NCBI GenBank assembly: GCA_963733035.1
Contig: CAVTBU010000007.1
Coordinates: 480,001-544,000 of the forward strand
DNA from: Pirellulales bacterium
GTDB lineage: Bacteria; Planctomycetota; Planctomycetia; Pirellulales; PALSA-1355
Direction of reading: 5' to 3'
Length of the DNA: 64,000 nucleotides
The notes under the pieces were generated by a model, which made no database searches, had not been told where the DNA came from, and saw only the letters and a program-made list of their open reading frames with translations. Below, piece by piece: positions 6,704-64,000 of this stretch. How positions within the stretch are numbered: position 1 is the stretch's first letter; each line of letters begins with the position of its first letter. A program made the position numbers and the translations under genes.

Positions 6704-6806
6704 TCAGGCCACGGCCTGACAGATTCCCGCGACCGACCTACCGCGGGTGGCACCCAAGACTCGTTGTCGGTGTTGGTGTTGCGAAACAATGGGAGCGATC
6801 GTCCGC
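6704..6806. repeat. REP-like cluster: TCAGGCC-AC-GGCCTGA palindrome plus partial block D
   Basis: Palindrome resembles the REP unit at 58042-58109; GGTGTTGCGAAACAATGGGAGCGATCGTCCGC matches 8476-8517 and the reverse complement of ~63745-63805. Confidence 0.65.
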
Positions 6807-6862
6807 GGTCAGCCGGCGATGATTCGAGAATCAGCCGGCACCGCCCTCTGTCATTAAGACTA

Positions 6863-8167
6863 TTACTTTACCCGCTTCAAGGTAAATGAAGTTTCCCCTG
6901 AACCTCTCTTGATATCGAACGAAGTCGGCCTTTGCCACGCGCCACGCCGGGGAAAACATATTCGCAAAGAATCTCCCTTTAGCTCGTAGATGGCCGACGC
7001 GGTTTCTTCCTGCAATTCGTGGACCAGCGCAGTGGTCCGCTCTTTCTGCGGTGCGAATCTGGGTGTTTGCACGAGGTCGATTGCTGACGGCTCTTGTTGA
7101 CGCGCCGGCCGAACGCGAAACTCATCTTCTTTCTTCCCGTTTGGGCCGATCCATTCCAGCATCTCCTCGTGGAAGACAAACCGAAAACCTTTGATCTTTG
7201 CTTCGGGTACTTGCTCCCCGTTATCTGTGGCTTCGACTACTTCCCACGTACCGTTCAGCCTGGCCAATTCGTCTTTCGCCCGACCGCTAGTCTCGCGCTG
7301 GGGGGATGCCTCATTCGCAGGCTTGCCTAGAGTCTGGGACCCGGCGTGGTCGGATTGATTGGTGCCGCTCCGCGGCTGTCCCCCATTCTGTTTGTTCGTA
7401 AAGAGCTTAGTCTGACTCCATATTCTCTCATACGGTACACCACCTAAGGCTCCTTCCTCCGGTTCTATTGGCCAAAGCTCGTCGAAGTACCCGGTGTTAA
7501 CCGCCAAATGCTGCTTGTTTGTGTCATACCACCGCATGGCGCTCGTGACGAAATCGGCATTGTCTTTGCCAGTGATTCCAACGCCGCCGAAAGCCCGGCG
7601 GACTGCGGCCGCAATGTCATGGCGTACGTCGGGAACCGGGCACTTCGTATACGCCTCTCCGAGAATCAGAATGGGATCGTCGAGCCGTCCTTGTTGCGCC
7701 AGATAATACTCAATGGGCCAATTGCCAACGCGTAGCGGAAATCGCGCCGAGAGCAAGGCGACAAGGCTTTCGCGGTCCCGCGAGTACACGAGCACGTCAA
7801 GCATGAATTCAACCATTGCTCGGTCGAAGTTGCTCCAATCCCTCCAGTGCGTCGGCAGCGTCCCGCACGACGCGACCAAATGCCGCACATCGCTATCGGA
7901 AAGGCTCTTTCTCAAAAGGTCGCCTTGCATCCTTACAAGTTCTCGATGCGCGTCGAACTTGGCGACTGAAATCTTCGCTGGTGTCTTTGCAAAGGTATCC
8001 CGCAACGAATCCCATTCTCTCTTGATTTCGAGCATCTTGGGCGAATCCCAGGTGATGTGCGATTTTCGTGTCTTGGATGGATTCTCCCCACACCCTGACT
8101 GAATCGGTAGCGCAACCGCGACCAGAACCGCGTGAAACGAAACCAGCTGACGAAACGAAACGTTCAT
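6863..8167 (-). CDS. Probable lipoprotein with C-terminal planctomycete TIGR03067-type domain
   Basis: Signal peptide with SGC lipobox-like motif; C-terminal L.GTW.VV...G, P..IDL, IYELKGDSLRICF, RPTSF, TLKR pattern. Confidence 0.75.
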   Translation of the reverse strand: MNVSFRQLVSFHAVLVAVALPIQSGCGENPSKTRKSHITWDSPKMLEIKREWDSLRDTFAKTPAKISVAKFDAHRELVRMQGDLLRKSLSDSDVRHLVASCGTLPTHWRDWSNFDRAMVEFMLDVLVYSRDRESLVALLSARFPLRVGNWPIEYYLAQQGRLDDPILILGEAYTKCPVPDVRHDIAAAVRRAFGGVGITGKDNADFVTSAMRWYDTNKQHLAVNTGYFDELWPIEPEEGALGGVPYERIWSQTKLFTNKQNGGQPRSGTNQSDHAGSQTLGKPANEASPQRETSGRAKDELARLNGTWEVVEATDNGEQVPEAKIKGFRFVFHEEMLEWIGPNGKKEDEFRVRPARQQEPSAIDLVQTPRFAPQKERTTALVHELQEETASAIYELKGDSLRICFPRRGAWQRPTSFDIKRGSGETSFTLKRVK

Positions 8168-8475
8168 TGGTTCGTCCTCGGCCGCGGCAAATTGAGCAAG
8201 CGTGTCTCAACCTTCGCATCGACTCGTAGCCACGCTCATGTTCGCTCGTTGTCCCCTTACCCCGCATTATAACGGCCCCGGGAGTTTTACGGGCGGATAA
8301 ACGAAAGCGCAGACGACCTTGGCTCAGCGAGTGCCAAGGGAATCGCAAAACGTTTTCACCGCAGCCATCGCCTCGACGGGGTGGGTCTGCAAAACCAAGT
8401 GTGGACCGGATACGGCTTCGAGACGCACGTCAGGTCGAATTTCAGAGATCCGTCGCCAAGAACGAGGCGATACCA

Positions 8476-8606
8476 AGCGGTTGGCGGTGTTGCGAAGCAA
8501 TGGGAGCCATCGTCCGCACGATCCCCTCTCATGCAGGCGCAAGACGGCAATCCTTGCCCCTCCTGGCCCCGCGGCAGCCGGACAACAAAGTTGACCGGGC
8601 CGCCCT
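8476..8606 (-). repeat. Block D repeat (contains GGACAAC-N-GTTGTCC-type palindrome); inverted copy at 63660-63805
   Basis: Aligns over ~130 nt with the reverse complement of 63660-63790, e.g. GGACAACAAAGTTG(A/T)CCGGGCC(G/A)CCCT. Confidence 0.7.
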
Positions 8607-8612
8607 GCGCAG

Positions 8613-8807
8613 AGTAGTAGGCTCACGCCGTGAGCCGTTCGGGCGGCACTGCTCGTTGCCTCGCGACCTGCTGTGGTCGGTCGAACCAGTACGGCGTCCC
8701 AGCTTGTCCGCTGCTGACTGATTGACACCCGAGCCTCTCTGCCAACCGGACGCGATCGGTTGCGTCCAACGTGCTGCCGCGACGGCTCACGGCGTGAGCC
8801 TGCTACT
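8613..8807. repeat. Inverted pair of GTAG-type REP elements (REPIN/BIME-like)
   Basis: AGTAGTAGGCTCACGCCGTGAGCCGT (8613-8638) matches the reverse complement of 8782-8807 at 25/26; internal palindrome GGCTCAC..GTGAGCC. Confidence 0.8.
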
Positions 8808-8855
8808 TTGACGCAAGCGAACCCGAGGAATGGAGCCTGATCGAAGATGTATTTG

Positions 8856-9065
8856 AATTCGGGCCAGCACTTCGGCTAGCTTACGGTTGGGAGATTTCAG
8901 ACTCGGGCGATGGAGGTTTTTTTGATGGTCAAACGAGGGCAAATGCAGGATTTGGGGAGGTGAATTGTTCGGTTTTTCGGCCTCCCTTAGGAATGAAAAG
9001 TTTCACAAAAAGTGCAGCGCGAAAATCGAGCCACTTGAAAATCTTCGAAATTCCAAATCGGGCCA
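8856..9065 (-). repeat. ~209-bp AT-rich non-coding element, copy 1 (inverted relative to copies 2 and 3)
   Basis: Reverse complement is near-identical to 57690-57898 and 60794-61001; bounded by TGGCCCGATT / TGGCCCGAATT. Confidence 0.92.
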
Positions 9066-9130
9066 CAACACGCGCGGATTGTTCCGTGTTGGCGGTCAAG
9101 CGGCGGGCGGTCGCGCAGGACGAATTCGGC

Positions 9131-49712: not shown

Positions 49713-50654
49713 CTACCCTCGCGGGTGGAACTGTTTGTGAATCTTCTTGAGGCGCGCCGGATCAACGTGCGTGTAGATTTGTGTTGTCGCAATGCTGGCG
49801 TGTCCCAACATTTCCTGCACCTGTCGCAAATCGGCCCCTCCGGTCAACAGATGCGTGGCAAAGCTGTGGCGAAGCGTGTGCGGACTCATGTCTGACGAAA
49901 TGCCCGCCATTGCGGCGTGCCGTTTGAACAGCTCCCAAATCCTCTCCCGCCGTAACCTCAATCCTCGCCGCGAAACCAGCAGCCATGGCGGCGGCGGCGC
50001 GCGATGCGCCACGCATTTGGGGCGCTCATGGGCCAAATAGTCGCGCACCGCTTGGATGGCCCGCTTGCCCAACGGCACCAGCCGTTCCTTGTTTCCCTTG
50101 CCCTTGCACAGGCAGTAACCTTCGTCCAGATGAGCATCGACGACCTGCAGGTGCGAGATCTCCGACGCCCGGCAACCCGTGGCATAGAGTAATTCAAGAA
50201 GCGCCCGATCGCGGCGCCACAGTGGTTCGCCCCGTTTAGGGCTATCGAGCAGCCGTTCGACCATCCCGGGCGTCAACACGTGCGGCACGCGCTCCCACAG
50301 CTTTTGGCTGCCCAGCAACTCCGCCAGATTCTCGTGCAAGAGTCCTTCGAGCTGCAGATAGCGGAAGAAAATCCGTAGCGACGCCAGGTGCCGTGCAATG
50401 CTGGCCGGAGCCAGCTTGCGCTCGTGTAGCCAGCCGGCATAGTCGGCCAGTTCCTGAATCGTGAGCGTCTGCACGCGCCGACCTGCCAGCCAACCGTAGA
50501 ATCGCTTCATGTCGCGGTGGTAGGCCGCCACGGTGTTTTCCGACAGGTGGCACTCCGACCGCAGATATTCCACGAACGATTCGATCCAGCGGCCCGTGAT
50601 TGCACCGCTTGCCACGGCGGCCGGCTTGAGCAGTTTTCGACGCGGTCCGCCCAT
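49713..50654 (-). CDS. xerD: Site-specific tyrosine recombinase XerD
   Basis: S.NT..AY..D, RDRALLELLYATG.R.SE, GKG.KERLVP, PHTLRHSFATHLL.GGADLR.VQEMLGH, TTQIYTHV, FHPR. Confidence 0.88.
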   Translation of the reverse strand: MGGPRRKLLKPAAVASGAITGRWIESFVEYLRSECHLSENTVAAYHRDMKRFYGWLAGRRVQTLTIQELADYAGWLHERKLAPASIARHLASLRIFFRYLQLEGLLHENLAELLGSQKLWERVPHVLTPGMVERLLDSPKRGEPLWRRDRALLELLYATGCRASEISHLQVVDAHLDEGYCLCKGKGNKERLVPLGKRAIQAVRDYLAHERPKCVAHRAPPPPWLLVSRRGLRLRRERIWELFKRHAAMAGISSDMSPHTLRHSFATHLLTGGADLRQVQEMLGHASIATTQIYTHVDPARLKKIHKQFHPRG

Positions 50655-50891
50655 GAACGTGTGCCTAGGGCCTCGTGAGGGAATTGCCGGCCTCGCTGCA
50701 AGCGGGATCTTGGCCGGACTCACCTCTTTGGTTCGTCGGGCCAAGCCTGCCGGCTGTAATGGGATTTGCGAGGCCCGCGATTTGTGCCTATGCTTCAGGG
50801 CAATCCCGACCGGCCTTGCCGGTAAGGGACCGCCGAAGCGCTCGCAAAATCAACACAATCCGTGCAATTGCCACGGCTTTCCATCGCGGAG

Positions 50892-54998: not shown

Positions 54999-55877
54999 TT
55001 ACGCGGTTTTCCGTCGAGCTCGTAACACGCGGGCATGGCCCGCCAGATCCTTCGCCGTTGGGGCGAGCTCCCAGTTCGGATCGGCCGCCACCAGCGATTC
55101 GACTCGCTGTTGTAGCATAGGGCTGATTTCCAGCAAGAGTGTTCCCCCAGGTCGCAGCCGCTCGGCCGCCTGTGGGATTAGCCGTTCGATGACGCTCAGG
55201 CCGCTCTCGCCAGCAACGAGTGCTAGCTGCGGTTCGTGCTCGCGCACCTCGGGGGCCAACGCCGCAAACTCCGCGGCTGTGATGTAAGGCGGATTGCTGG
55301 CAATGAAGTCGAACCGGCGCTCGGCTGGCAACGCCGCAAACAAATCACTTTCGATAAACTCGACGCGGTCCGAGACTCCCAGTCGTTCGGCATTCTCTTT
55401 GGCCACCGCGAGCGCTGCCCGGCTGAGGTCAATGGCGACCGCCCGCACGCGCGGCGCGTGTTTAGCTACGCTGAGGGCGATGATGCCGCTGCCGGTCCCC
55501 ACGTCGGCGAATTCAAGGGGCCCCTGGTCTGGCACGGACTTGATCAAGTCCAACAGCGCGATCACCAGAAATTCGGTTTCAGGACGCGGAATCAGCACGT
55601 CGGGTGTCACGCGAAAGTCGAGCGAGTAAAACTCGCGGTGTCCCACCAGATAGGCAAACGGCACACCCTCGGCCCGCCGCTTCACCAACGCGCGAAACCG
55701 CGTTCGCAGCACCTCGTCGGCCGGTTGGTCGAAGCTGGTGTAGAGATCCACCCGTTTGCAATCGCGGGCGTGGGCCAATAGCACTTCGGCCTCTAGCCTG
55801 GGGCTCTCGGCGCCGTGCTGCTTGAGATAGTCGCTCGTCCACTGGAGCAATCGCCCGATGGTCCAGTCTTCGGCCAT
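54999..55877 (-). CDS. prmC: Release factor glutamine methyltransferase
   Basis: VLIPRPETE, DVGTGSG, SNPPY, EP..AL; downstream of prfA. Confidence 0.96.
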   Translation of the reverse strand: MAEDWTIGRLLQWTSDYLKQHGAESPRLEAEVLLAHARDCKRVDLYTSFDQPADEVLRTRFRALVKRRAEGVPFAYLVGHREFYSLDFRVTPDVLIPRPETEFLVIALLDLIKSVPDQGPLEFADVGTGSGIIALSVAKHAPRVRAVAIDLSRAALAVAKENAERLGVSDRVEFIESDLFAALPAERRFDFIASNPPYITAAEFAALAPEVREHEPQLALVAGESGLSVIERLIPQAAERLRPGGTLLLEISPMLQQRVESLVAADPNWELAPTAKDLAGHARVLRARRKTA

Positions 55878-55911
55878 GGCAGCTTCCAGAGGGTTGAGTC
55901 GGTCGAGAGGC

Positions 55912-56976
55912 TTACGCTTCGGAGCCCATCTCGCGGCGGAGTTGTTGCCGATCGTAATCCATCAGGGCGTCGGTGAGCACTTGCATGTCGCCGGCCAGAA
56001 TGGCATCCAGCTTGTAGAGCGTCAAATTGATGCGGTGATCGGAGACCCGATTCTCGGCGAAGTTGTAGGTGCGGATTCGCTGGCTGCGGTCGCCCGATCC
56101 GACGAGCGTCTTGCGTTCGCTCGAGCGCTTGGCATGTTCGGCCTCGCGTTTGGCTTCGTACAGCCGGGTTTTGAGCACGCGGATGCGCTTGGCAAAGTTC
56201 TTGTGCTGGCTCTTTTCGTCCTGGCACTGCACGACGATGCCGGTTTCCAGGTGCGTCAGCCGAATGGCCGAGGCCGTCTTGTTCACGTGCTGACCGCCGG
56301 GCCCGCTGGCACAAAACGTGTCCTTGCGAAAATCCTCGGGCTTCAGGTCGATTTCCACGTCCTCCGGCTCCGGAAGCACGGCCACGGTGGCCGCCGAAGT
56401 GTGAATCCGCCCCTTGGTTTCGGTCTCGGGCACGCGCTGCACGCGATGACCGCCGCTTTCGTATTGCAGCTCGCGGAACACGCCCTCGCCTTCGATGCCG
56501 AGGATGATTTCCTTGAAGCCGCCCAGCTCCGTGGAGTTCATATCCAGAACTTCCATCTTCCAGCCTTTGTTCTCGGCATGGTGCTTGTACATTTCGTACA
56601 GATCGCGAGCGAACAGGGCGGCCTCGTCGCCGCCGGTGCCGGCGCGGATTTCCATCACCACGCGATCGCGCTGGGCGTCTTCGCCGCCGATGGTCATGCC
56701 CAGCAGTTCGTCCCACAGGTTTTCGCGCTCGTGGCGAAGCGTTGGCAGTTCGCCCTCGGCCATTTCGCGTAGTTCGGCGTCGTGTCCCTCGATCATTTCC
56801 TGGGCTTCGCCGATCTGCGCGTTGAGCGACTTGAAGCGTCGATACTTCTTGGCCAGGCGCCCCAGCGAGCCATGTTCGCGCGCGGCGGCAGCCACGAGTG
56901 CCGGCTGGGCCAGCACCTCTGGATCGACGAGCTGGCGTTCCAACTCCTCGAAGCGAGCCAGTTTGTCATCGAGCAT
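55912..56976 (-). CDS. prfA: Peptide chain release factor 1
   Basis: [21 protein letters not shown] (PxT), [21 protein letters not shown]. Confidence 0.96.
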
Positions 56977-57097
56977 GGTGCGCAGTGATGACACCGGGGG
57001 TGTCCTCCAAAAAGAAAGCGCCTGAATTGACCCTCCGTGGCACCGAACTCTCGAGCATGCAGCCGCGCGGGCTTGGTGTGCGCGGCGGCGGGCAGGC

Positions 57098-57144
57098 AAA
57101 CAAAAACGCCGCCCACCCGCCAATCTCCGGCAGGCCGCGCGGCG
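57098..57144 (-). terminator. Possible intrinsic terminator after rpmE
   Basis: Imperfect GC-rich stem (CGCCGC..CCTGCC / GGCGGG..GCGGCG) followed by TTTTTGTTT on the minus strand. Confidence 0.45.
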
Positions 57145-57160
57145 CGATTGTTCTGGTCAG

Positions 57161-57412
57161 CTACGACTCGGTCTTGGCTTCGGCCTTCTTGCCACGCTTC
57201 AGGCTGGCATAACCGGCCGAAGCGAACTTGTTCTTGAACTTCTCGATCCGTCCGGCCGTGTCGACGAATTTCAGCTTGCCCGTGTAGAACGGATGGCAAG
57301 CGTTGCAAATGTCGACCTTCAGCTCGGGACGCGTGCTGCGCGTGGTAAACGAGTTGCCACAGCCGCACTTGACCAAGGTTACGTAGTACTGGGGATGGAT
57401 GTCTTTCTTCAT
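57161..57412 (-). CDS. rpmE: 50S ribosomal protein L31 (Zn-binding type)
   Basis: [29 protein letters not shown]. Confidence 0.97.
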
Positions 57413-57499
57413 AACTTTCACCACGACCATTGTAGCCGCCTGGGCAAGACCCAAACGGACCGTAAAAGGCCGCTCCGCGGGAGAAAAAGGCAAACTAAG

Positions 57500-57528
57500 A
57501 GTTTAGCAATGCAGGGTTTAAGCCACAA
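57500..57528 (-). promoter_or_regulatory. Putative sigma70 promoter for rpmE
   Basis: Minus strand TTGTGG-17 nt-TAAACT with extended -10 TG, ~90 nt upstream of the start. Confidence 0.45.
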
Positions 57529-57689
57529 GGGGGCCGCTCTGTAATGGCCGCCGCCAACGTGGAAATTCCCGCGGTTTGCGTCCTTTGGATGATCCCTTTC
57601 ATTCTCAAGCGGTGTTCGGCGGATTGGTCTTTGTTCGGCCCGATAGCGCACCGCGCGCGGGTCGCCACCGCGCAGGATCGGCCGACGAT

Positions 57690-57898
57690 TGGCCCGATTT
57701 GGAATTTCGAAGATTTTCGAGTGGCTCGGTTTTCGCGCTGCACTTTTTGTGAATCTTTTCATTCCTAAGGGAGGCCGAAAAACCGAACAATTCACCTCCC
57801 CAAATCCTGCATTTGCCCTCGTTTGACCATCAAAAAAACCTCCATCGCCCGAGTCCGAAATCTCCCGACCGTAGCCTAGCCCAATCGCTGGCCCGATT
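57690..57898 (+). repeat. ~209-bp AT-rich non-coding element, copy 2
   Basis: TGGCCCGATT at 57690-57699 and 57889-57898; matches 8856-9065 (inverted) and 60794-61001. Confidence 0.92.
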
Positions 57899-58041
57899 AC
57901 CAGAGACAAACCGAGCAAGCGCTGCCGACGACCATCGGCGGCACGCATTGCAGCGGAAAAACTCCGCCCACGGGTTTCTCGCAAACGGCCGGCACTTCCC
58001 AGGTGCCCGAAGCATTACAATGTTATCCGGAGGCCCGTTCG

Positions 58042-58109
58042 AGTAGGTCAGGCCCTGGCCTGACGGATGTTCGACAACGCCTCCCCGTCAGGCCAGGGCC
58101 TGACCTACT
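58042..58109. repeat. Perfect 25-bp inverted pair of GTAG-type REPs (REPIN-like); second copy 61137-61203
   Basis: AGTAGGTCAGGCCCTGGCCTGACGG ... CCGTCAGGCCAGGGCCTGACCTACT with an 18-nt spacer. Confidence 0.9.
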
Positions 58110-58449
58110 TTTAATGCGAACGCGAGGATTGAGAAGGTTCCTGAGAGCCGATTCACAGCGATCGTCTGTACAAAATCCATGCTCACAAAACCCATCGCCG
58201 TTTTCTCGCTTAGCGCGCTGCTGCTGCCGATATCCCGTCGCGGCCGCCCGCACGTGAGTTTCTGGCCGGGCCGGCGGCGGCAAAAGTTCCGGCGGCACCT
58301 ATTTTGGAACGGGGGACTCGGGGCGGAAGTGATGGGAGGGTGCCCCAGGTGGTTTCTGGAAAGGGTTTGCATCCCCTTAGGTTACTCTTGCAATGGGCTG
58401 GCGTGTCGGAAATGAAGACGCGCTTTTGGGCTAGCTGGCGAGGCGTCGA

Positions 58450-59576
58450 ATGCACTTTTTCTGCATAGCCACCGTCTGTGTTGGCAGTGTCTTGGGATCG
58501 GAGTGTGACGAACTCATCAATGCGAACGCGCAATCGCTGAGTCTCATTCGAACAATTGAAGTTGAGTACGAGCTCGAAACGCTTGATCCCTCGGATTCGA
58601 CCGCACTGAAGTCGCAGTGGACTAAAGACGGTGACTTAGAGCGATTTGGTCGCTCACATGAGCCAGACAGAAACTCGGTTGATGTCGTCCAAGACGGTGA
58701 GACTGTACGGCAGTTGCGGAATTGGGTTCCCAATACACCGCTGACTCCGACGTATCAGAATGGCGTTGAGGCAGAGGTGCGGCCACAGACCATTTACCCG
58801 GCGAGCGCAATTTCGCCAGCGTATCAGCTCTGCATGGAACTCTCGGCGGTTCCCAAATGGTCACTTGCCGAGTTGGCCAAAGTATCGCCTCGCACCGAGT
58901 GCAAGGGAAAGGTTGATCGTGGTGGAGAGACATTGTGGCTGATAAAGCTCGAATCGCCCGATGACGCGCCGGCCGAGGAGTCTAAGAATCGCTTCGAAGT
59001 GTTTCTTGATCCGTCTCACGGGTATGCGATTCGTCGTTTGGTCGTGCATCGTGATGAGAAGCTTCCCGATGGGCGTTCACGGGTGTATTCTCATTGTCAT
59101 GAAGTTTTTGAGTACAAGGATTTTGGCGATGGAGTGTTCTTGCCCATTCACGTTAAGCACGGGACGTACTCTGGGGGCGAGGATCTGTGGGAGACGGAGG
59201 TCAAGGTGCGAGTCGCTCGTGTGAATGAGGTCATTCCGCCGGAGAAGTTTGAGTTAAAATGGCCGCAATTCGCAATCGTCAAGTATTTTCCGGCCGTCAA
59301 TGGGCAAGTGAAATTCGACGTATGGGGAAGCGATGGGCCGATTGAAACCTTCGTTGGCAACGTCGATCTAAGGCGTTGGTCGGAGGACCGGCAACGAACT
59401 GATCCAGAGTTTGCGGAGAGTCTAAGTTTAATGGAGCAAAAGCTGCTTCGCACCAACGCTCAAGGAGCTGGCTTTCGAACGTGGTTGATAGCGATCAACG
59501 TATTTGTGTGTGCAGGCGCGGCGCGTACATTTTCCGCCGATTTCTATATCGGCGCCACCGTGAGGTGCTTCCGTGA
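58450..59576 (+). CDS. Hypothetical secreted protein with C-terminal membrane anchor (probable frameshift near 59515; ORF as given ends at 59682)
   Basis: Beta-rich body; WLIAINVFV TM start; the shifted frame gives AYIFRRFLYRRHREVLP* ending in a GTGA overlap with the next gene. Confidence 0.65.
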
Positions 59577-60619
59577 AGCCGGCAATTCGGCTGTTGCCAG
59601 TCGCGATTTTCTGCGTTGTTTCCATTGGCATTGGATCCGCAATTGCTCGTTGGGCTCGAACACCGAAATCAGTTGTATTTGATCCGCCGACGGTCAACGT
59701 CGAGCGTGAGGTGCTGCACGGTACTCGTCTCGATGTGCGGTTTGAGTTGGTCAATCAGTCGGCTGAAAGGATAGCGATCAGCAAGCTGGTTGGTTCTTGC
59801 GGCTGCATGGTATTGTCCGGTGATAGCGGTCCGCTGCCCACGCCACTAAACATAGAACCAAATGGGCGTACTGCGATTGCAGTGAAGGTGAGAACCGATC
59901 GTGGGAACGGGGTAGGGTCGCGCGACTTTACTGTCATGGCGTATGGAAAGAGTGCAGGCGGCAAGCAAATAGCCGCGGTCGGCAGGATCCAAGTAACTCT
60001 CTTGTCTGGCCTTCAGGCAGAACCTGCATACGTGCTCCTTCGGAATATTAATTCGCAAGATGAGCGGTCTGTCGAAATTGAGGTGGCGGATACTCTGACG
60101 GACCCAGGTGTCCGGATACGCGACGTTGTAGTGAGCGATCCCGCGCGTATGAGCGTTGAATTGAGACAAGCCGCGGGCGCGTCGAAGGTTTTTGGCGACA
60201 GCGGCCTCGGAAGGCAACGCGCCATTCTAGTGCTCAAGTATCGGCCCTGCATAACTGCGGGGCTCGAGCGTGATAAGGTTACCGTTGTGCCGGAAGATCC
60301 CATCTACCCAATCCTGGAGATTCCGGTTGAGTGCTCGGTCGCTGGCCCCGGTTTCGGGTTCGTTCCTAGTAGCCTCACTTTTACCGAGACATTTGACACG
60401 GTCACTCGTGAGATAGCTTTTAAGGCGGATGATTCGGTGACGCTTTCGGTTGAAAAATGCCCGCCTGGCATAGCGGCTAAGATTATCCAGGGGCCTCGCC
60501 GTCGCATCGTTTCGATAACCTGCGAGAAGAATGCATTTCGGAATGGCGACTGCGAATTGGTGTTTCTCGTTGACGGTGTTGCAACGCCTTACTCGCTTCG
60601 AAGTCGCCCAATCGAATGA
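59573..60619 (+). CDS. DUF1573-like Ig-fold domain protein
   Basis: N-terminal TM; F.L.N......I.....SCGC.......I.P motif followed by further beta-sandwich segments. Confidence 0.72.
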   Translation: MKPAIRLLPVAIFCVVSIGIGSAIARWARTPKSVVFDPPTVNVEREVLHGTRLDVRFELVNQSAERIAISKLVGSCGCMVLSGDSGPLPTPLNIEPNGRTAIAVKVRTDRGNGVGSRDFTVMAYGKSAGGKQIAAVGRIQVTLLSGLQAEPAYVLLRNINSQDERSVEIEVADTLTDPGVRIRDVVVSDPARMSVELRQAAGASKVFGDSGLGRQRAILVLKYRPCITAGLERDKVTVVPEDPIYPILEIPVECSVAGPGFGFVPSSLTFTETFDTVTREIAFKADDSVTLSVEKCPPGIAAKIIQGPRRRIVSITCEKNAFRNGDCELVFLVDGVATPYSLRSRPIE

Positions 60620-60707
60620 GTGTGCGAGCAGTGCGAGGCATGCGCGCATCGTACCGCCAGAACCGCTCGTCGGCAAGAAAAAAGGTTCGCGTCCCCTTTA
60701 ATTGCTC
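60618..60707 (+). repeat. Block C repeat, copy 1 (copy 2 at 61570-61659)
   Basis: GAGTGTGCGAGC(A/C)GTGCGAGGCATGCGCGCATCGTACCGCCAGAACCGCTCG...AAAAGGTT.GCGTCC.CTTTAATTGCTC present twice. Confidence 0.88.
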
Positions 60708-61470
60708 TCAAGTGGTGTTCGACGGATTGGTCTTTGTTCGGCCCGATAGCGCAGCCGGCCGTGGGTCGCCACCGCGCTGGATCGGCCGACGATTGGCCCG
60801 ATTTGGAATTTCGAAGATTTTCGAGTGGCTCGGTTTTCGCGCTTCACTTTTTGTGAATCTTTTCATTCCTAAGGGAGGCCGAAAAACCGAACAATTCACC
60901 TCCCCAAATCCTGCATTTGCCCTCGTTTGACCATCAAAAAAACCTCCATCGCCCGAGTCGAAATCTCCCGACCGTAGCCTAGCCCAATCGCTGGCCCGAT
61001 TCCAGAGACAAACCGAGAGCGCTGCCGACGACCATCGGCGGCACGCATTGCAGCGGAAAAACTCCGCCCACGGGTTTTCGCAAACGGCCGGCACTTCCCA
61101 GGTGCCGAAGCATTACAATGTCAGTCGGAGGCTTCGAGTAGGTCAGGCCTGGCCTGACGGATGTTCGACAACGCCTCCCCGTCAGGCCAGGGCCTGACCT
61201 ACTTTTAATGCGAACGCGAGGATTGAGAAGGTTCCTGAGAGCCCCTTCACAGCGATCGGCTGTACAAAATCCATGCTCACAAAACGCATCGCCGTTTTGT
61301 GGTTATCGCGCTGCTGCTGCCGATATCCGTCGCAGCCGCCCCACGATTTCGTCGGCCCGGTGACGGCTAAAGTCGGCGGAACTGTTTTGGAACGGGGACT
61401 CGGGGTGGAAGTGATGGGAGGGTTCTTCAGATGGTCCCAGGAAAAGGTTTGCGTCTTTGCGTCCCCTTAA
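60707..61470 (+). repeat. ~780-bp composite non-coding direct repeat, copy 2 (includes 209-bp element copy 3 at 60794-61001)
   Basis: Direct alignment with 57604-58388. Confidence 0.93.
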
Positions 61471-61569
61471 GTTCTTCCGAGTTGCCGCTGAGCGACAAAT
61501 CAGTGATGTCCGATTTTCTACTCGCAGTTGGCGTTGGCCCGATTGAGGATATGATAAACACATCCGCCA

Positions 61570-61659
61570 GAGTGTGCGAGCCGTGCGAGGCATGCGCGCA
61601 TCGTACCGCCAGAACCGCTCGCCGGCAAGAGAAAAGGTTGGCGTCCACTTTAATTGCTC
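61570..61659 (+). repeat. Block C repeat, copy 2
   Basis: Matches 60618-60707. Confidence 0.88.
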
Positions 61660-61693
61660 CCTTTAACTGCTCCAATTAGAAGCAGAACTCCTC

Positions 61694-62766
61694 ATGAGCA
61701 GCGTAGAAGATGAAGCAACAAAGCAAGGCGATTTGCTGCGGGACAAAGGCGATCTCGATGGAGCGATAGCTGCTTACACCGAAGGCCATTCGTCTGCATC
61801 CACAAAACGCTCAGTCGTATTTTCGCCGGGGCCAAGCTTACTTGCGAAAAGGCGAATTCAACAAGGCCATCGCCGACTGTAACAAAGCCATACAGCTTGA
61901 TCCGATGATGGCCGAGGCATATTGCTGGCCGGGGTTGCTCCACGGCAGGAACGGCGACCTCGACAAGGCAGCGACTGACTGCACGGAGGCTATTCGCCTC
62001 GACCCGCACATATGCCGAGGCATACTATGTCCGAGGGATGCGTTTTGGGCTGAAGGGTGATTTTGACAGAGCGATTGCTGACTGTACAGACGCTATTCGC
62101 CTCGACCCGAAGTTGCCTCACGCATTTCGAGGGCGAGCCGGTCTTCATGATAGGAAGGGTGAGTTCGACAAGGCGATTGCGGACTGGACGGAGGCATTCG
62201 GCTCGAACCGCAACGTGCGAAGACATATTGGGGTCGAGCCCATGTATATGAAAAGAAGAGCGAGTTCGACAAGGCGATTGCGGATTTCACGGAGTCCATT
62301 CGGCTCGATCCACAGATATGCCGAAGTCTATTGTGGGCGGGCCTATGCTTATTCTAAGAATGGTGAGTTCGACAAGGCTATCGCTGACTACATCGAGGCC
62401 ATCAGACTCGATCCGAAGCATGCCACGGCGTAATAAAACCGTGCCTTGATCTACAGACAAGAAGAGTGAGTTCGACAAGGCGATTGCCGACTTCACCGAG
62501 GTCATTCTGACTGAACCCGAAAGATGCCGAGGCGTACTACAACCGTGGCTGCGCCTACGGCAAGAAGGCTGACTACGACAAAGCGATCACCGACTTTAAA
62601 GAGGCGATTCGGATCAATCCGAAAAATGGGTACACGTTTCTATGCTCGGGGCTGGTGCGTACTGGCAGAAAGACGAGAAAGGCAAAGCCACGCCGATTTC
62701 GCACAAGCCGAGAAACTTGGGATACAAAGCGGGCCAGGTCGACGAACATCAGAGGACGGGGAGTAA
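61694..62766 (+). pseudogene. TPR-repeat protein (about 9-10 TPRs) broken by many frameshifts: pseudogene or low-quality sequence
   Basis: Repeating (G/S)EFDKAIAD.TEAIRLDP..AEAY..RG units spread over all three forward frames; GAGTTCGACAAGGC recurs at ~102-nt spacing. Confidence 0.8.
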
Positions 62767-62943
62767 CTTAAAGGGACGCAAAGGACGCAAGCCTTTTTTC
62801 CGTTTTGTTGCCGGCACGGAACACTGCCGTGCGATGTAGCCTAATGCCGCGCACTGCTTCGTGATACTTCTGGGTGCACATGTTTACTCATCCCGCCATG
62901 GGGCCAGCGAGCACGTTACACGATGGCTACAGATGACCTGCCA

Positions 62944-63087
62944 CGGCCGCCCGCACATGAGTTTTATGCCTGGCAGGCGGCAAAAGTTTCGGCGGCACGT
63001 GTTTCGGAACGGGGACTCGGTGCCGAAGTGATGTGAGGGTTATCCGGGTGGTTCCAGCGAAAGGTTTGCGTCCGCTTAGGTTACTCT
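62944..63087 (+). repeat. Block B repeat, copy 3 (others 58241-58388 and ~61334-61470)
   Basis: CGGCCGCCCGCAC.TGAGTTT...GGCGGCAAAAGTT.CGGCGGCAC...GGAACGGGGACTCGG...GAAGTGATG...CTTAGGTTACTCT. Confidence 0.85.
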
Positions 63088-63107
63088 GGACCAAGACGAT
63101 AGCACAT

Positions 63108-63536
63108 ATGCGGTTATCTCGACTCATAATGGCGCTCGCCCTGATTGGGATGTGCATTGGTGTTGTCATTCTGTTTTTTGCACCGGTTTTGCACTTTGCG
63201 TTTACGATTGACGAGGCGAAGTCAAGATTCCGAAGTAGATCCGCCGAGGCTCGCGAGACGATCGAGTTCGTTTATGGATACTACCTACGTCATTACAAAT
63301 GGCCGACAGAAGCGGAAACGGCCCAAATGGCCGTCAAGCCTCTTCCGCCCGAATGGCACTACGAGAGCCACCCTGACGGTCCGATAATCTATTGTCAGGG
63401 ACCCCACCATATGGCAATTGCCTACTATTTTTCTCCACCAATACGTGGAAAGATAGCCAACGAGTGGGTGTTGTCGGTCGAAGGAACTAAGGAGCGGTTT
63501 TCTTTTGAACGTGAATACACCGCGAATACATTCTGA
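63108..63536 (+). CDS. Hypothetical protein with N-terminal TM helix
   Basis: ATG-started 142-aa ORF 20 nt after block B; hydrophobic N-terminus. Confidence 0.62.
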   Translation: MRLSRLIMALALIGMCIGVVILFFAPVLHFAFTIDEAKSRFRSRSAEARETIEFVYGYYLRHYKWPTEAETAQMAVKPLPPEWHYESHPDGPIIYCQGPHHMAIAYYFSPPIRGKIANEWVLSVEGTKERFSFEREYTANTF

Positions 63537-63659
63537 AGAGGAGCCCGTTGCCGCGGTCGTGCTTTCGACGGACCATCGGCGCAGGCTAGGGCGATAGCAC
63601 GTTAGGCAATTTCAAGAGGAAACAAGCGCCAGCGGACCTTAGACACTCGACTCATGCGA

Positions 63660-63805
63660 GGGTGGCCCGGACAACTTTGTTGTCCAGGTGTCGCAGGCAC
63701 AGGAGGGTCGAGAATTGCCGCGTTGCGCCCAGTTGAAATGGGATCGCGCTGACGACGGCTCCAATTGCTTCGCAACACCGACAACGAGTTGTCCGTGCCG
63801 CCCGC
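63660..63805 (+). repeat. Block D repeat: degenerate inverted pair of GGACAAC..GTTGTCC palindromes
   Basis: GGGTGGCCCGGACAACTTTGTTGTCCAGGTG ... CACCGACAACGAGTTGTCCGTGCCGCCC; reverse complement matches 8476-8606 and 6743-6806. Confidence 0.72.
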
Positions 63806-63937
63806 GTTATTTCCGCGCCCGTGCGACAAGGACTTATATACGACTGTTGAATTAGCGTTGTCTAGATCCAAAGGTAGTCCCAAGATGCGCTGGCTCCTGG
63901 GTGTAGTTTGGTCGACGGTTTAGCGATCAAGGTGCGA

Positions 63938-64000
63938 ATGCTGCGACATCTGATGCTTAGCGTGTGCCTATTCGCGTTTGGCGCGATCGTATACTACGGT
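63938..64000 (+). CDS. Possible start of a secreted/membrane protein truncated by the window edge
   Basis: AAGG then ATG; MLRHLMLSVCLFAFGAIVYYG is open to the end of the window. Confidence 0.3.
   Translation, partial: MLRHLMLSVCLFAFGAIVYYG

Follow-up and report, generated by a model that had tools for sequence, protein, structure and literature searches.

Relics of two Y1 transposase systems probably fill the spacers of a cassette-like accessory islet in a Pirellulales genome

The subject of this work is an accessory islet of ≈8 kb, located at the right-hand end of a 64,000 nt stretch of a Pirellulales genome (hereafter the window), in which unrelated genes are separated by a small set of repeated non-coding blocks. 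The closest described systems are those built around genes for REP-associated tyrosine transposases (RAYTs; REP, repetitive extragenic palindrome). In the nomenclature given in parts of Di Nocera et al. 2013 (PMC3733652), RAYT genes flanked by GTAG-tagged REPs constitute REPtrons, and those flanked by long inverted repeats constitute TIRtrons (TIR, terminal inverted repeat), the enzymes of which are named TIRYTs. The same parts of that report state that some TIRtron repeats share the sequence GGGGWSAS, that the repeat families are moderately abundant and are found "in dimers or clusters", and that REPs lie mostly downstream of coding regions, where they may act as RNA elements. For E. coli, sections of Ton-Hoang et al. 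2012 (PMC3333891) describe REPtrons from which the transposase gene (tnpA-REP) has been lost with retention of the flanking bacterial interspersed mosaic elements (BIMEs), and REP/BIME and REPIN systems (a REPIN being a REP doublet) with RAYTs are likewise covered in portions of Bertels & Rainey 2011, PMC3116915 and PMC3337134.

The genome under study (G000) is represented by a 6.65 Mb assembly that is 92% complete; the window corresponds to C7:480001-544000, and C5, C6 and C10 denote other contigs (C1 to C4 being copies of a block named C, see below). The islet extends from ~57.5 to 65.35 kb in window coordinates, running past the window end to C7:545350, and is bordered on the left by rpmE and on the right by genes for a tetratricopeptide repeat (TPR) protein, a transglutaminase-like protein, a DAHP-synthase-family (KdsA-like) protein and a lipid kinase. 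DNA homology to relatives G001 to G003 stops at 57435-57448, past rpmE. Only 0.47-0.73 kb separate rpmE and the right-flank gene in G002 and G003 (both of the same genus) and in G004, as opposed to 8.05 kb in G000; the islet is therefore without counterpart in these three relatives compared and is considered specific to the lineage. In G001 the two islet flanks are found on separate contigs. The G+C content (GC) of the islet is 0.52-0.59 versus 0.61-0.67 in the preceding 7 kb, its long open reading frames (ORFs) are all on the plus strand, and all six cargo ORFs are co-oriented.

In our assessment, which we put at a probability of roughly two in three, the islet spacers are occupied by remains of two Y1 (HUH, single-tyrosine) transposase systems, one a TIRtron and the other a REPtron, together with their non-autonomous repeats; they represent selfish DNA of a known type rather than an integron. 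The identities of the blocks, their genome-wide families and the absence of the islet from the relatives compared are established directly, as is, from copies located in different flanks, the mobility of an M-bounded element in a relative. A first-pass annotation, made from the letters of the window alone, had described a series of reused blocks between AT-rich, plus-strand genes and had proposed that genes are captured or shuffled by recombination at these blocks. Its observation is confirmed and its interpretation is partly supported: block order, reuse, strand and AT-richness are borne out by the repeat map, by the alignment of the two largest repeats (784 columns, 92%), by GC and by the ORFs, and it had correctly placed the islet start after rpmE but not the islet end, which lies beyond the window at ~65350. 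The block series is present in the order previously described from 57.5 kb to the window end (repeat map), as follows (positions beyond 64000 continue the numbering of the window).

57161..57412, minus strand: rpmE (ribosomal protein L31), last core gene left of the islet (PF01197, 111 bits)
~57573..57603, plus strand: M0, a degenerate M with an internal insertion, directly 5' of block A (by eye and alignment; copies 1 and 2 start aligning at GGTTYGCGTCC)
57594-58210, plus strand: block A, copy 1 (repeat map)
57596..57690, plus strand: "Apre", 95 nt between M and R1, including a hairpin-prone stretch (nhmmer: two copies, both in the islet)
57690..57905, plus strand: R1, copy 1, the 215-nt core of block A with TGGCCCGRTT at both ends (27-copy dispersed repeat)
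57905..58039, plus strand: "Amid", in place of the RAYT gene and leader of the intact module (C5:2308825-2309566; three-way alignment)
58042..58109, no strand assigned: REPIN, two inverted GTAG-tagged REPs (AGTAGGTCAGGCCCTGGCCTGACGG and its complement) with an 18-nt spacer (25-nt arms, 100% complementary)
58179..58358, plus strand: remnant of a small secreted-protein gene, consisting of a signal-peptide start and a frameshifted C-terminus (aligned to the intact gene C5:2309658-2310174)
58217-58383, plus strand: block B1, the 3' part of the small-gene remnant (repeat map)
58359..58387, plus strand: M ending B1 (nhmmer E=1.5e-5)
58450..60619, plus strand: cargo ORF1 (58450-59682) and ORF2 (59573-60619)
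60616..60707, minus strand: C1, left-end relic of a Y1 (TIRYT-like) element, with M at 60679-60707, promoter, and ATG plus seven codons (MPRTARTL), cut off at the ORF2 stop codon
about 60694..61478, plus strand: second A+B copy, with Apre2, R1 at 60794-61003, Amid2, REPIN at 61137-61203 and B2 at 61310-61473 (repeat alignment)
60696-61300, plus strand: block A2 (repeat map)
61456-61477, plus strand: M ending B2 (weak match, E=0.1)
61486..61661, minus strand: C2, second Y1 left-end relic, ~25 frameshifted codons (..VYHILNRAN..), M at 61631-61661 (sequence reading)
61694..~62760, plus strand: TPR-repeat gene, frame-broken (TPR_1, 72 bits on one fragment)
62759..62899, plus strand: C3, Y1 left-end relic in opposite orientation, inverted M at 62759-62798 followed by ATG CCG CGC ACT.. 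remnants (sequence reading, nhmmer)
62926..63086, plus strand: B3, third, older copy of the small-gene 3' end, with M at 63060-63086 (79% identity to B1)
63108..63536, plus strand: cargo ORF4, 142 aa
63658..63806, no strand assigned: D, a 149-nt imperfect palindrome with two inverted ~45-nt arms (fold, family search)
63908..64000, plus strand: cargo ORF5, starting in the window and ending outside it at 64396
beyond ORF5: C4 with M (64485-64607), a single GTAG REP (64732-64786) and ORF6 (64960-65316)

The degenerate M0 is absent from the nhmmer matches to M, and a spacer of ~60-100 nt separates B2 from C2. Among the repeated parts, C1 and C2 (60618-60707 versus 61570-61659, same orientation) are 94.4% identical over 90 nt, the B1-B3 comparison extends over 166 nt, and C3 plus B3 form a 330-nt unit between inverted M sites. 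The likeness between the two A+B copies and between C1 and C2 greatly exceeds what chance would produce. The blocks are not a one-off duplication and belong to families distributed over the genome (R1 27 copies, C 16, M ~22-29, D seven, B four), which, in support of the first-pass interpretation, track variable, low-GC DNA.

Motif M (AAAGGTTTGCGTCCCCTTWARTTRCTC, ~28 nt) closes B, C and the stretch 5' of A, and is inverted after the TPR gene. A census of G000 by nhmmer retrieved 29 matches, 22 of which are at E<=0.01, with clusters of eight, six and five sites in addition to back-to-back pairs. An independent count of the 20-nt M core, allowing two mismatches, retrieved ten occurrences in G000 versus none for a reversed control pattern, and the core is present in five of 30 relatives, none of them of the same genus. 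Block C, for which iterated nhmmer of the whole genome was used, permits the identity of M to be read: on the opposite strand, the likeness between all 16 copies starts sharply at GGAGTAAYTAAAGGGGACGCRAACC, the reverse complement of M, and this is followed by a sigma-70-like promoter (TTGCCG-17 nt-TACGAT), ~8 nt and the sequence ATG CCT CGC ACT GCT CGC (MPRTAR). The MPRTAR start matches that of an intact 243-aa gene (C6:841714-840983), and several of the nine matches to PF01797 (Y1 transposase) in G000 are located exactly at C copies. On these sequence comparisons, C consists of M, the promoter of a Y1 element and the first 8-25 codons of its transposase gene, eight codons being kept in C1 and ~25, frameshifted, in C2, C3 and C4, with C3 and C4 oriented opposite to C1 and C2. 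The earlier statement that no transposase is adjacent does not hold, since four truncated Y1 transposase gene starts are situated inside the blocks themselves; a co-occurring Y1/RAYT transposase, which the same annotation had envisaged, is represented by the nine PF01797 matches.

In relative G007, at least three full copies of a 791-nt element are present in different flanks, with fragments at two further loci, and each copy carries a 229-aa MPRTAR Y1 gene inside perfect 24-25-nt inverted repeats that hold the M core. Considering that the C copies start sharply at M and that the G007 copies are framed by M, this motif is the terminal inverted repeat of a small RAYT-like Y1 element of the TIRtron kind, an element which, judging from its different flanks, has been mobile in G007. 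The MPRTAR proteins score 33-49 bits on PF01797 (cut-off 23) and 62-67 bits on NF047646 (REP-associated tyrosine transposase; cut-off 80), and are classified as RAYT-like rather than as equivalogs because the latter score is below the cut-off; in the Y1 proteins, HWH (the HUH motif) is recognisable, as is a conserved Tyr further on. A second gene type in G000, represented by the Y1 gene C6:844189-844860, is framed by inverted GAGAAGAAAAGGGGACATCACTG, and one such repeat is found at the inner end of C2, which carries the GGACATCACTGAT-type repeat corresponding to the end of this second element type.

A TIRtron-type element, i.e., a RAYT-like gene (MPRTAR..YHxLNRxN..HWH) inside inverted 24-30-nt repeats with a AAAGGGGACG core, is accordingly the source of both M and C. 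It resembles the published TIRtrons in that a RAYT-like Y1 gene lies inside inverted repeats with a GGGG core (in G007 and G000) and in that gene-less M repeats are scattered and clustered in intergenic DNA. It differs from them in that the window holds relics only (four truncated gene starts and solo repeats), in that the G007 element is present in several near-identical copies, as is typical of an insertion sequence (IS), whereas TIRYT and RAYT genes are usually single-copy, and in that the M core GGGGACGY fits just the first six letters of GGGGWSAS.

Two of the M clusters (L034, C5:2311500-2318750, six sites; L035, C5:2527800-2534950, five sites) have each M at an ORF boundary among ORFs of low G+C content at third codon positions (GC3), and the former is positioned directly after the intact RAYT module presented below. 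Three C copies (C5:1088092-1088214, C5:2648636-2648771 and C5:2737001-2737128) possess a common extra tail past the ~25 Y1 codons, which contains a G+C-rich hairpin (CGGCCCGGTCC..GGACCGGGCCG) and resembles one copied miniature derivative.

Blocks A and B can be explained by comparison with an intact module at C5:2308610-2310275, which is composed of R1, a GTAG REP, a RAYT gene, a REPIN, a small secreted-protein gene and an M-like site. The RAYT gene (C5:2308999-2309550) scores 193.7 bits on NF047646, and GTAG REPs occur on both sides of it, namely GTAGGTCAGGCCCTGGCCTGAC at C5:2308873 and the doublet at C5:2309567-2309635; the small gene (C5:2309658-2310174) specifies 171 aa with a signal-peptide-like start. 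In a three-way alignment, both window copies are collinear with C5:2308560-2310300 save for two gaps, one of ~590 nt corresponding to the RAYT reading frame and one of ~320 nt in the middle of the small gene; no RAYT gene is present in the window, both block A copies having the ~590-nt gap at that position. B is, on account of this alignment, the frameshifted 3' end of the small gene plus M, and A+B as a whole is a deletion copy of the R1-REP-RAYT-REPIN-small gene-M module, that is, a copy of a REPtron (a true RAYT with GTAG REPs) that lacks the RAYT reading frame along with the central part of the small gene. Iterated nhmmer of G000 retrieved four copies of the B family, and the A hairpin (GTAG REP) gave 23 matches on both strands, equivalent to 13 elements at ~11 loci; the two parts of A other than R1 and the hairpin are confined to the islet. 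The likeness to REPtrons lies in the true RAYT flanked by GTAG palindromes, one of which is a REP doublet, and in the retention of this doublet without the gene in both block A copies, as in the reported loss of tnpA-REP with BIMEs retained. In contrast, the REP family is found here at ~11 loci and not at hundreds, and the whole module with R1 and small passenger gene is present in four partly decayed copies, whereas the REPtrons of the literature are described as not being mobile as a whole. For C, A and B, that is, for most blocks, the result is decayed fragments of known IS-type elements, an outcome that the first-pass annotation had itself listed as counting against its interpretation.

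The array most probably grew by repeated insertion of elements side by side, in the manner in which REP/BIME and TIR repeats are known to cluster; the M-bounded A+B(-C) unit would then have been duplicated locally, before deletions and decay set in, with the cargo consisting of ordinary, patchily distributed accessory genes that came to lie between repeats and would not be cassettes with recombination sites of their own.

With respect to the IS200/IS605 family, the IS200 equivalog model NF033573 is scored at 19.4 bits against a cut-off of 55, the ends observed here are inverted repeats as opposed to two like-oriented subterminal hairpins, and no TnpB gene was seen beside those Y1 genes that were read. 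What is shared is the Y1 HUH fold (PF01797 over cut-off) and also the formation of short non-autonomous derivatives and insertion beside their own kind. Gene-less derivatives of IS200/IS605 elements are termed PATEs (PMC6006769).

A resemblance to integrons, or to clusters of attC sites lacking an integron integrase (CALIN), is apparent from the co-oriented, unrelated, AT-richer small genes between short repeats, some of which can be folded as imperfect hairpins, and from a conserved element at one end, here R1. However, the repeats represent end sequences and fragments of HUH transposase elements, and several spacers hold decayed genes. None of 17 matches to the integron integrase (IntI, TIGR02249) in the 92% complete genome reached the cut-off, the best of them scoring 81.1 versus 265 bits. 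The attC sites of integrons are imperfect palindromes of 57-141 nt with RYYYAAC ... GTTRRRY cores that follow each cassette. Inspection by eye found no such sites, D and M being without R''/R' cores (RYYYAAC / GTTRRRY) and M not being palindromic; of the D arms, GGACAAC ... GTTGTCC, only the AAC/GTT part fits an attC core. Beyond the shared gene orientation, nothing of the integron-like logic put forward earlier was therefore recovered, i.e., neither an integrase nor attC-type sites. Another comparable situation is that of the Neisseria "minimal mobile elements" and dRS3/Correia-rich sites, where different genes are found per strain in a repeat-rich site between conserved flanks, and where transforming DNA is exchanged through homologous recombination within the conserved flanks.

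The A+B unit has M at both ends, and its two copies (57594-58388 versus 60694-61478; 91.96% identity over 784 columns) diverge exactly at the outer edge of M. Following B-M, copy 1 continues with ORF1-ORF2, and copy 2 with the longer transposase relic C2 and then the TPR gene. The coincidence of M with the breakpoints of a duplicated unit hints at the recombination role that the first-pass annotation had assigned to the blocks. Because C2 retains more codons than C1, deletion within copy 1 cannot have given rise to copy 2; ORF1-ORF2 either took the place of other sequence once the unit had been duplicated, or else the arrangements derive from different haplotypes. The copies differ by 50 substitutions and 15 indel events; for 12 of these events it is copy 2 that lacks the bases, eight times a single base, with several in C or G runs. 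The region 60.7-62.8 kb looks poorly polished or like a merged haplotype, the one-base gaps being a warning sign, while simple assembler duplication is ruled out by the 50 substitutions, and the decoding of the blocks is independent of this doubt.

Small shares of the stretch are held by two soil-metagenome runs, X1 and X2, in which uncovered parts are not evidence on their own. X1, which may be the source sample, provides short contigs identical to the window at a depth of only 2-3x, with some cover at 61.3-61.9 kb and none at 59.8-61.3 kb and 61.9-63.7 kb. X2 represents a related strain of ~92-95% identity, which keeps the rpmE-M0-A junction (contig over 57398-57766). Another X2 contig joins B1-like sequence to M-ORF4-D, passing from 58341 to 63062 with 20 other letters in between, and in a further one the TPR 3' end leads into 1146 nt that do not resemble window 55000-64000; ORF1/ORF2 are uncovered. 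Since the joining contig contains only ~90 nt of B, and B1 and B3 are paralogues, it shows at most a structural difference between strains. No RNA dataset is among the public runs holding the stretch.

R1 has no consensus fold, RNAalifold on its 27 copies (iterated nhmmer) giving -5.16 kcal/mol with nine pairs in one local hairpin, and neither R1 nor D has an Rfam match at E<=1; the best Rfam match in the stretch, mraW, falls on the REPIN hairpin and has 26.9 bits against a threshold of 50. On the Rfam and RNAalifold results, the idea that R1 is a known or structured RNA was rejected. Folding of the 50 nt 5' of the R1 copies is more stable than that of random 50-mers (mean -9.0 versus -6.4 kcal/mol). 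A decayed gene was also discarded as an explanation: blastx against the Y1 proteins of the genome gave a best E of 0.2 with matches in inconsistent order, and a peptide-like frame common to the R1 copies is a mere reflection of nucleotide conservation. The R1 boundary motif TTGGCCCGRTT is the antisense of the conserved Y1 codons ..LNRAN.. (61519-61545 versus R1 starts, e.g. 57688-57705); the derivation of R1 from a transposase gene that this likeness might imply was rejected, the C profile missing R1 and the 10-mer having ~55 copies in the genome, and the likeness was taken as chance. R1 was not found by BLAST in 30 relatives, and a 17-nt R1 core pattern was above control in G000 only among 33 genomes of the family, a repeated G012 variant failing the R1 profile. 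Two exact degenerate R1 patterns had no match in the genome contig collection and one 36-nt pattern had none in metagenome contigs, these being scans that may leave out records of the window's own genome.

Twelve R1 copies constitute the largest subfamily and are near-identical (e.g. C7:388066-388700, C6:846647-847270 and C6:346372-346990). Three of these extend to a ~510-nt unit with M and a shortened Y1 promoter copy at its end, and some have a further common 70-115 nt upstream with a third TGGCCCGGTT motif. Near several R1 copies, stretches of 1.2-1.4 kb with 99.6-99.8% identity are found (approximately C10:163300-164700, C6:113300-114700, C7:384400-385600 and C5:2532550-2533800), which are probably active insertion sequences of another family.

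The cargo is heterogeneous. ORF1 belongs to no family, ORF4 and ORF6 have no Pfam family, ORF2 is DUF1573-like (PF07610, 24.8 bits, just under the cut-off of 26.1), and one membrane helix is predicted in ORF4 from its sequence. ORF1, ORF2, ORF4, ORF5 and ORF6 are single-copy in G000, and no cargo paralogues were found in that genome, apart from weakly matching ones of ORF6 and of the 434-aa gene of a second islet described below. Relatives of ORF1 with 25-32% identity are present in four of 150 other genomes of the order, none of them within its own family; in one of these, G026, an ORF2 relative is located directly after the ORF1 relative, with no M, R1 or D within 1.5 kb on either side. This spread over few genomes, together with the G026 pair devoid of M, R1 and D, makes ORF1-ORF2 a conserved pair of an ordinary, patchily distributed kind. 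The TPR gene noted in the first-pass annotation is present but is broken by frame changes: its repeat spacings are 102, 103, 102, 101, 103, 103 and 103 nt, where 102 keeps the frame, and its ORFs are fragmented, so that it represents either a pseudogene or consensus errors.

Block D of the islet folds as single-stranded DNA with -37.4 and -39.8 kcal/mol (z -3.25 and -3.95). The seven members of its family in G000 have the conserved core ATTGCTTCGCAACACCGACAAC, and D is read as a third palindrome family, REPIN-like or similar to miniature inverted-repeat transposable elements, with no enzyme tied to it. A second, smaller islet of like build is found in the window between two core genes, with the following parts:

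~6748-9130, minus strand: second islet
9065-8853: R1
~8810-8620: GTAG-type REPIN
8605-8474: D
8167-6863: 434-aa gene
6810-6748: partial D

Its REPIN differs from that of block A (GTAGCAGGCTCACGCCGTGAGCC.. arms), its D copy (8468-8612) does not fold end to end (z -0.5 and -1.7), the 434-aa gene belongs to no family, and the partial D adjoins the following core gene. This is one (window 6.7-9.1 kb) of three loci at which R1 and D bracket an islet of 1.5-2.3 kb beside high-GC3 genes. No empty site for the second islet was recognised in G002, G003 and G011, where the neighbouring membrane-protein gene is present and synteny is lost.

Several observations do not sit easily with an array of transposase relics. 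The M profile was built from its own matches, seven of 29 being at E 0.05-0.1; in G000, M stands on just one side of the sole intact M-type gene (C6:840983-841714); and M is without a clear hairpin of its own, a 5-bp stem being the best found by eye. A random piling-up of elements does not predict duplication breakpoints at M, and R1, with 27 copies, no protein remnant, no RNA fold and one orientation at a low-GC edge, is left unexplained. These last two points would fit better with a hitherto undescribed polar, integron-like platform operating by single-strand HUH chemistry, an explanation we nevertheless hold to be improbable, in which R1 would be the "head" of ~26 R1-headed islets, low-GC genes and M, C, D and B would be added on its 3' side only, and a Y1 enzyme acting in trans (TIRYT/RAYT) would cut and join at M, D and REPs, such that M- and D-bounded segments with cargo genes are inserted, copied or swapped. 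The 2.5 kb downstream of R1 are indeed lower in GC than the 2.5 kb upstream for 24 of the 27 copies (means 0.580 versus 0.615, Wilcoxon p=2e-5), and 37% of the downstream stretches, versus 4% of those upstream, are below the 10th GC percentile of the genome. Within 7 kb downstream of R1, representing 2.8% of the genome, 21 of 28 M, six of seven D, ten of 16 C and four of four B are located, compared to two M, no D, one C and one B on the upstream side, counts which are not independent, considering that eight of the 21 M are in one islet and seven M belong to the same module as R1 (248-454 nt away), making the R1-M and R1-B linkage partly trivial. Moreover, M follows ten different R1 copies, the R1 and D brackets recur at three loci, the M-bounded A+B unit is followed by a different sequence in each copy, all six cargo ORFs are on the strand of R1, and the X2 contig joins B1-like sequence to M-ORF4 in a strain where ORF1/ORF2 are uncovered. 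That joint, however, may just reflect a B3 of the strain that resembles B1, and the G026 gene pair has none of the supposed landmarks. In addition, R1 has no enzyme linked to it, none of its copies has a tyrosine recombinase gene within 8 kb, and an integron integrase is lacking. R1 orientation shows no link to GC skew (14 of 27), whereas such a link should be seen for a single-strand transposon that targets the lagging strand; the co-orientation of genes with R1, at 13 of 26, also gives no support, this figure being meaningless since it was obtained with a crude ORF/GC3 caller that mis-called known islet ORFs. Gene capture at the blocks, as originally proposed, is not demonstrated and stays a minority reading.

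Somewhat less likely still is that the segment from 60.7 to 62.8 kb (A2, B2, C2 and TPR) is an artefact, being poorly polished or strain-chimeric, the "duplication" then consisting of two haplotypes joined in tandem. This would account for the predominance of bases missing in copy 2, for a TPR gene in which the frame changes in at least five of seven repeat intervals and yet each repeat reads as TPR, and for a divergence of ~6% substitutions between the A+B copies that is like the distance to the X2 strain (~5-8%); the two gaps in X1 cover point the same way and count little at 2-3x depth. On the other hand, the copies carry 50 substitutions, C1 and C2 are of unequal length (8 versus 25 codons) and lie in contexts consistent with a coherent local history, and X1 has some cover within the segment; the block families, moreover, are genome-wide regardless of whether the segment is true. 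We give very little credence to the idea that the blocks are selected promoters, leaders and terminators of the accessory genes instead of mobile-element debris. In its favour, ORF1, the TPR gene and ORF4 each have an M 20-60 nt upstream of the start codon, M elsewhere comes after stop codons, G+C-rich hairpins with a T run behind them can be formed by some M pairs (e.g. C5:1828532-1828570), and REPs are placed mostly downstream of coding regions, as possible RNA elements, in the parts of PMC3733652 referred to above. But the promoter within C is directed away from the cargo genes, C and B consist of truncated, frameshifted coding sequence, and R1 is without a conserved fold or an Rfam family at gathering level and is absent from all relatives searched. 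Relics of a TIRtron and a REPtron, with associated non-autonomous repeats, thus remain the preferred explanation of the islet spacers.

On that explanation, the islet provides a Planctomycetota example of a known pattern, in which REPtrons, TIRtrons and orphan repeats gather in variable intergenic DNA and mimic a designed "kit". It also carries a warning for annotation, as most of the apparent cassette punctuation comes down to transposase starts that are truncated, small genes that have decayed, and end-repeats. R1 is a 215-nt, lineage-confined repeat whose orientation predicts the side on which accessory DNA and other repeat families are found; if its polarity were to reflect a mechanism, this would represent a way to build gene islets with domesticated HUH transposases and would bear on the host role of RAYT-type enzymes.

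Two further features of the window lie outside the islets. A tyrosine recombinase gene is located ~7 kb before the main islet (49713-50744, minus strand; PF00589, 159 bits); it is far under the integron-integrase cut-off, has a score similar to that of the gene at C5:996154, and is probably one of a XerC/XerD pair. Finally, contig C7 reaches its lowest cumulative GC skew near 500000 (window ~20000), a point that may mark a replication origin or terminus within the window.

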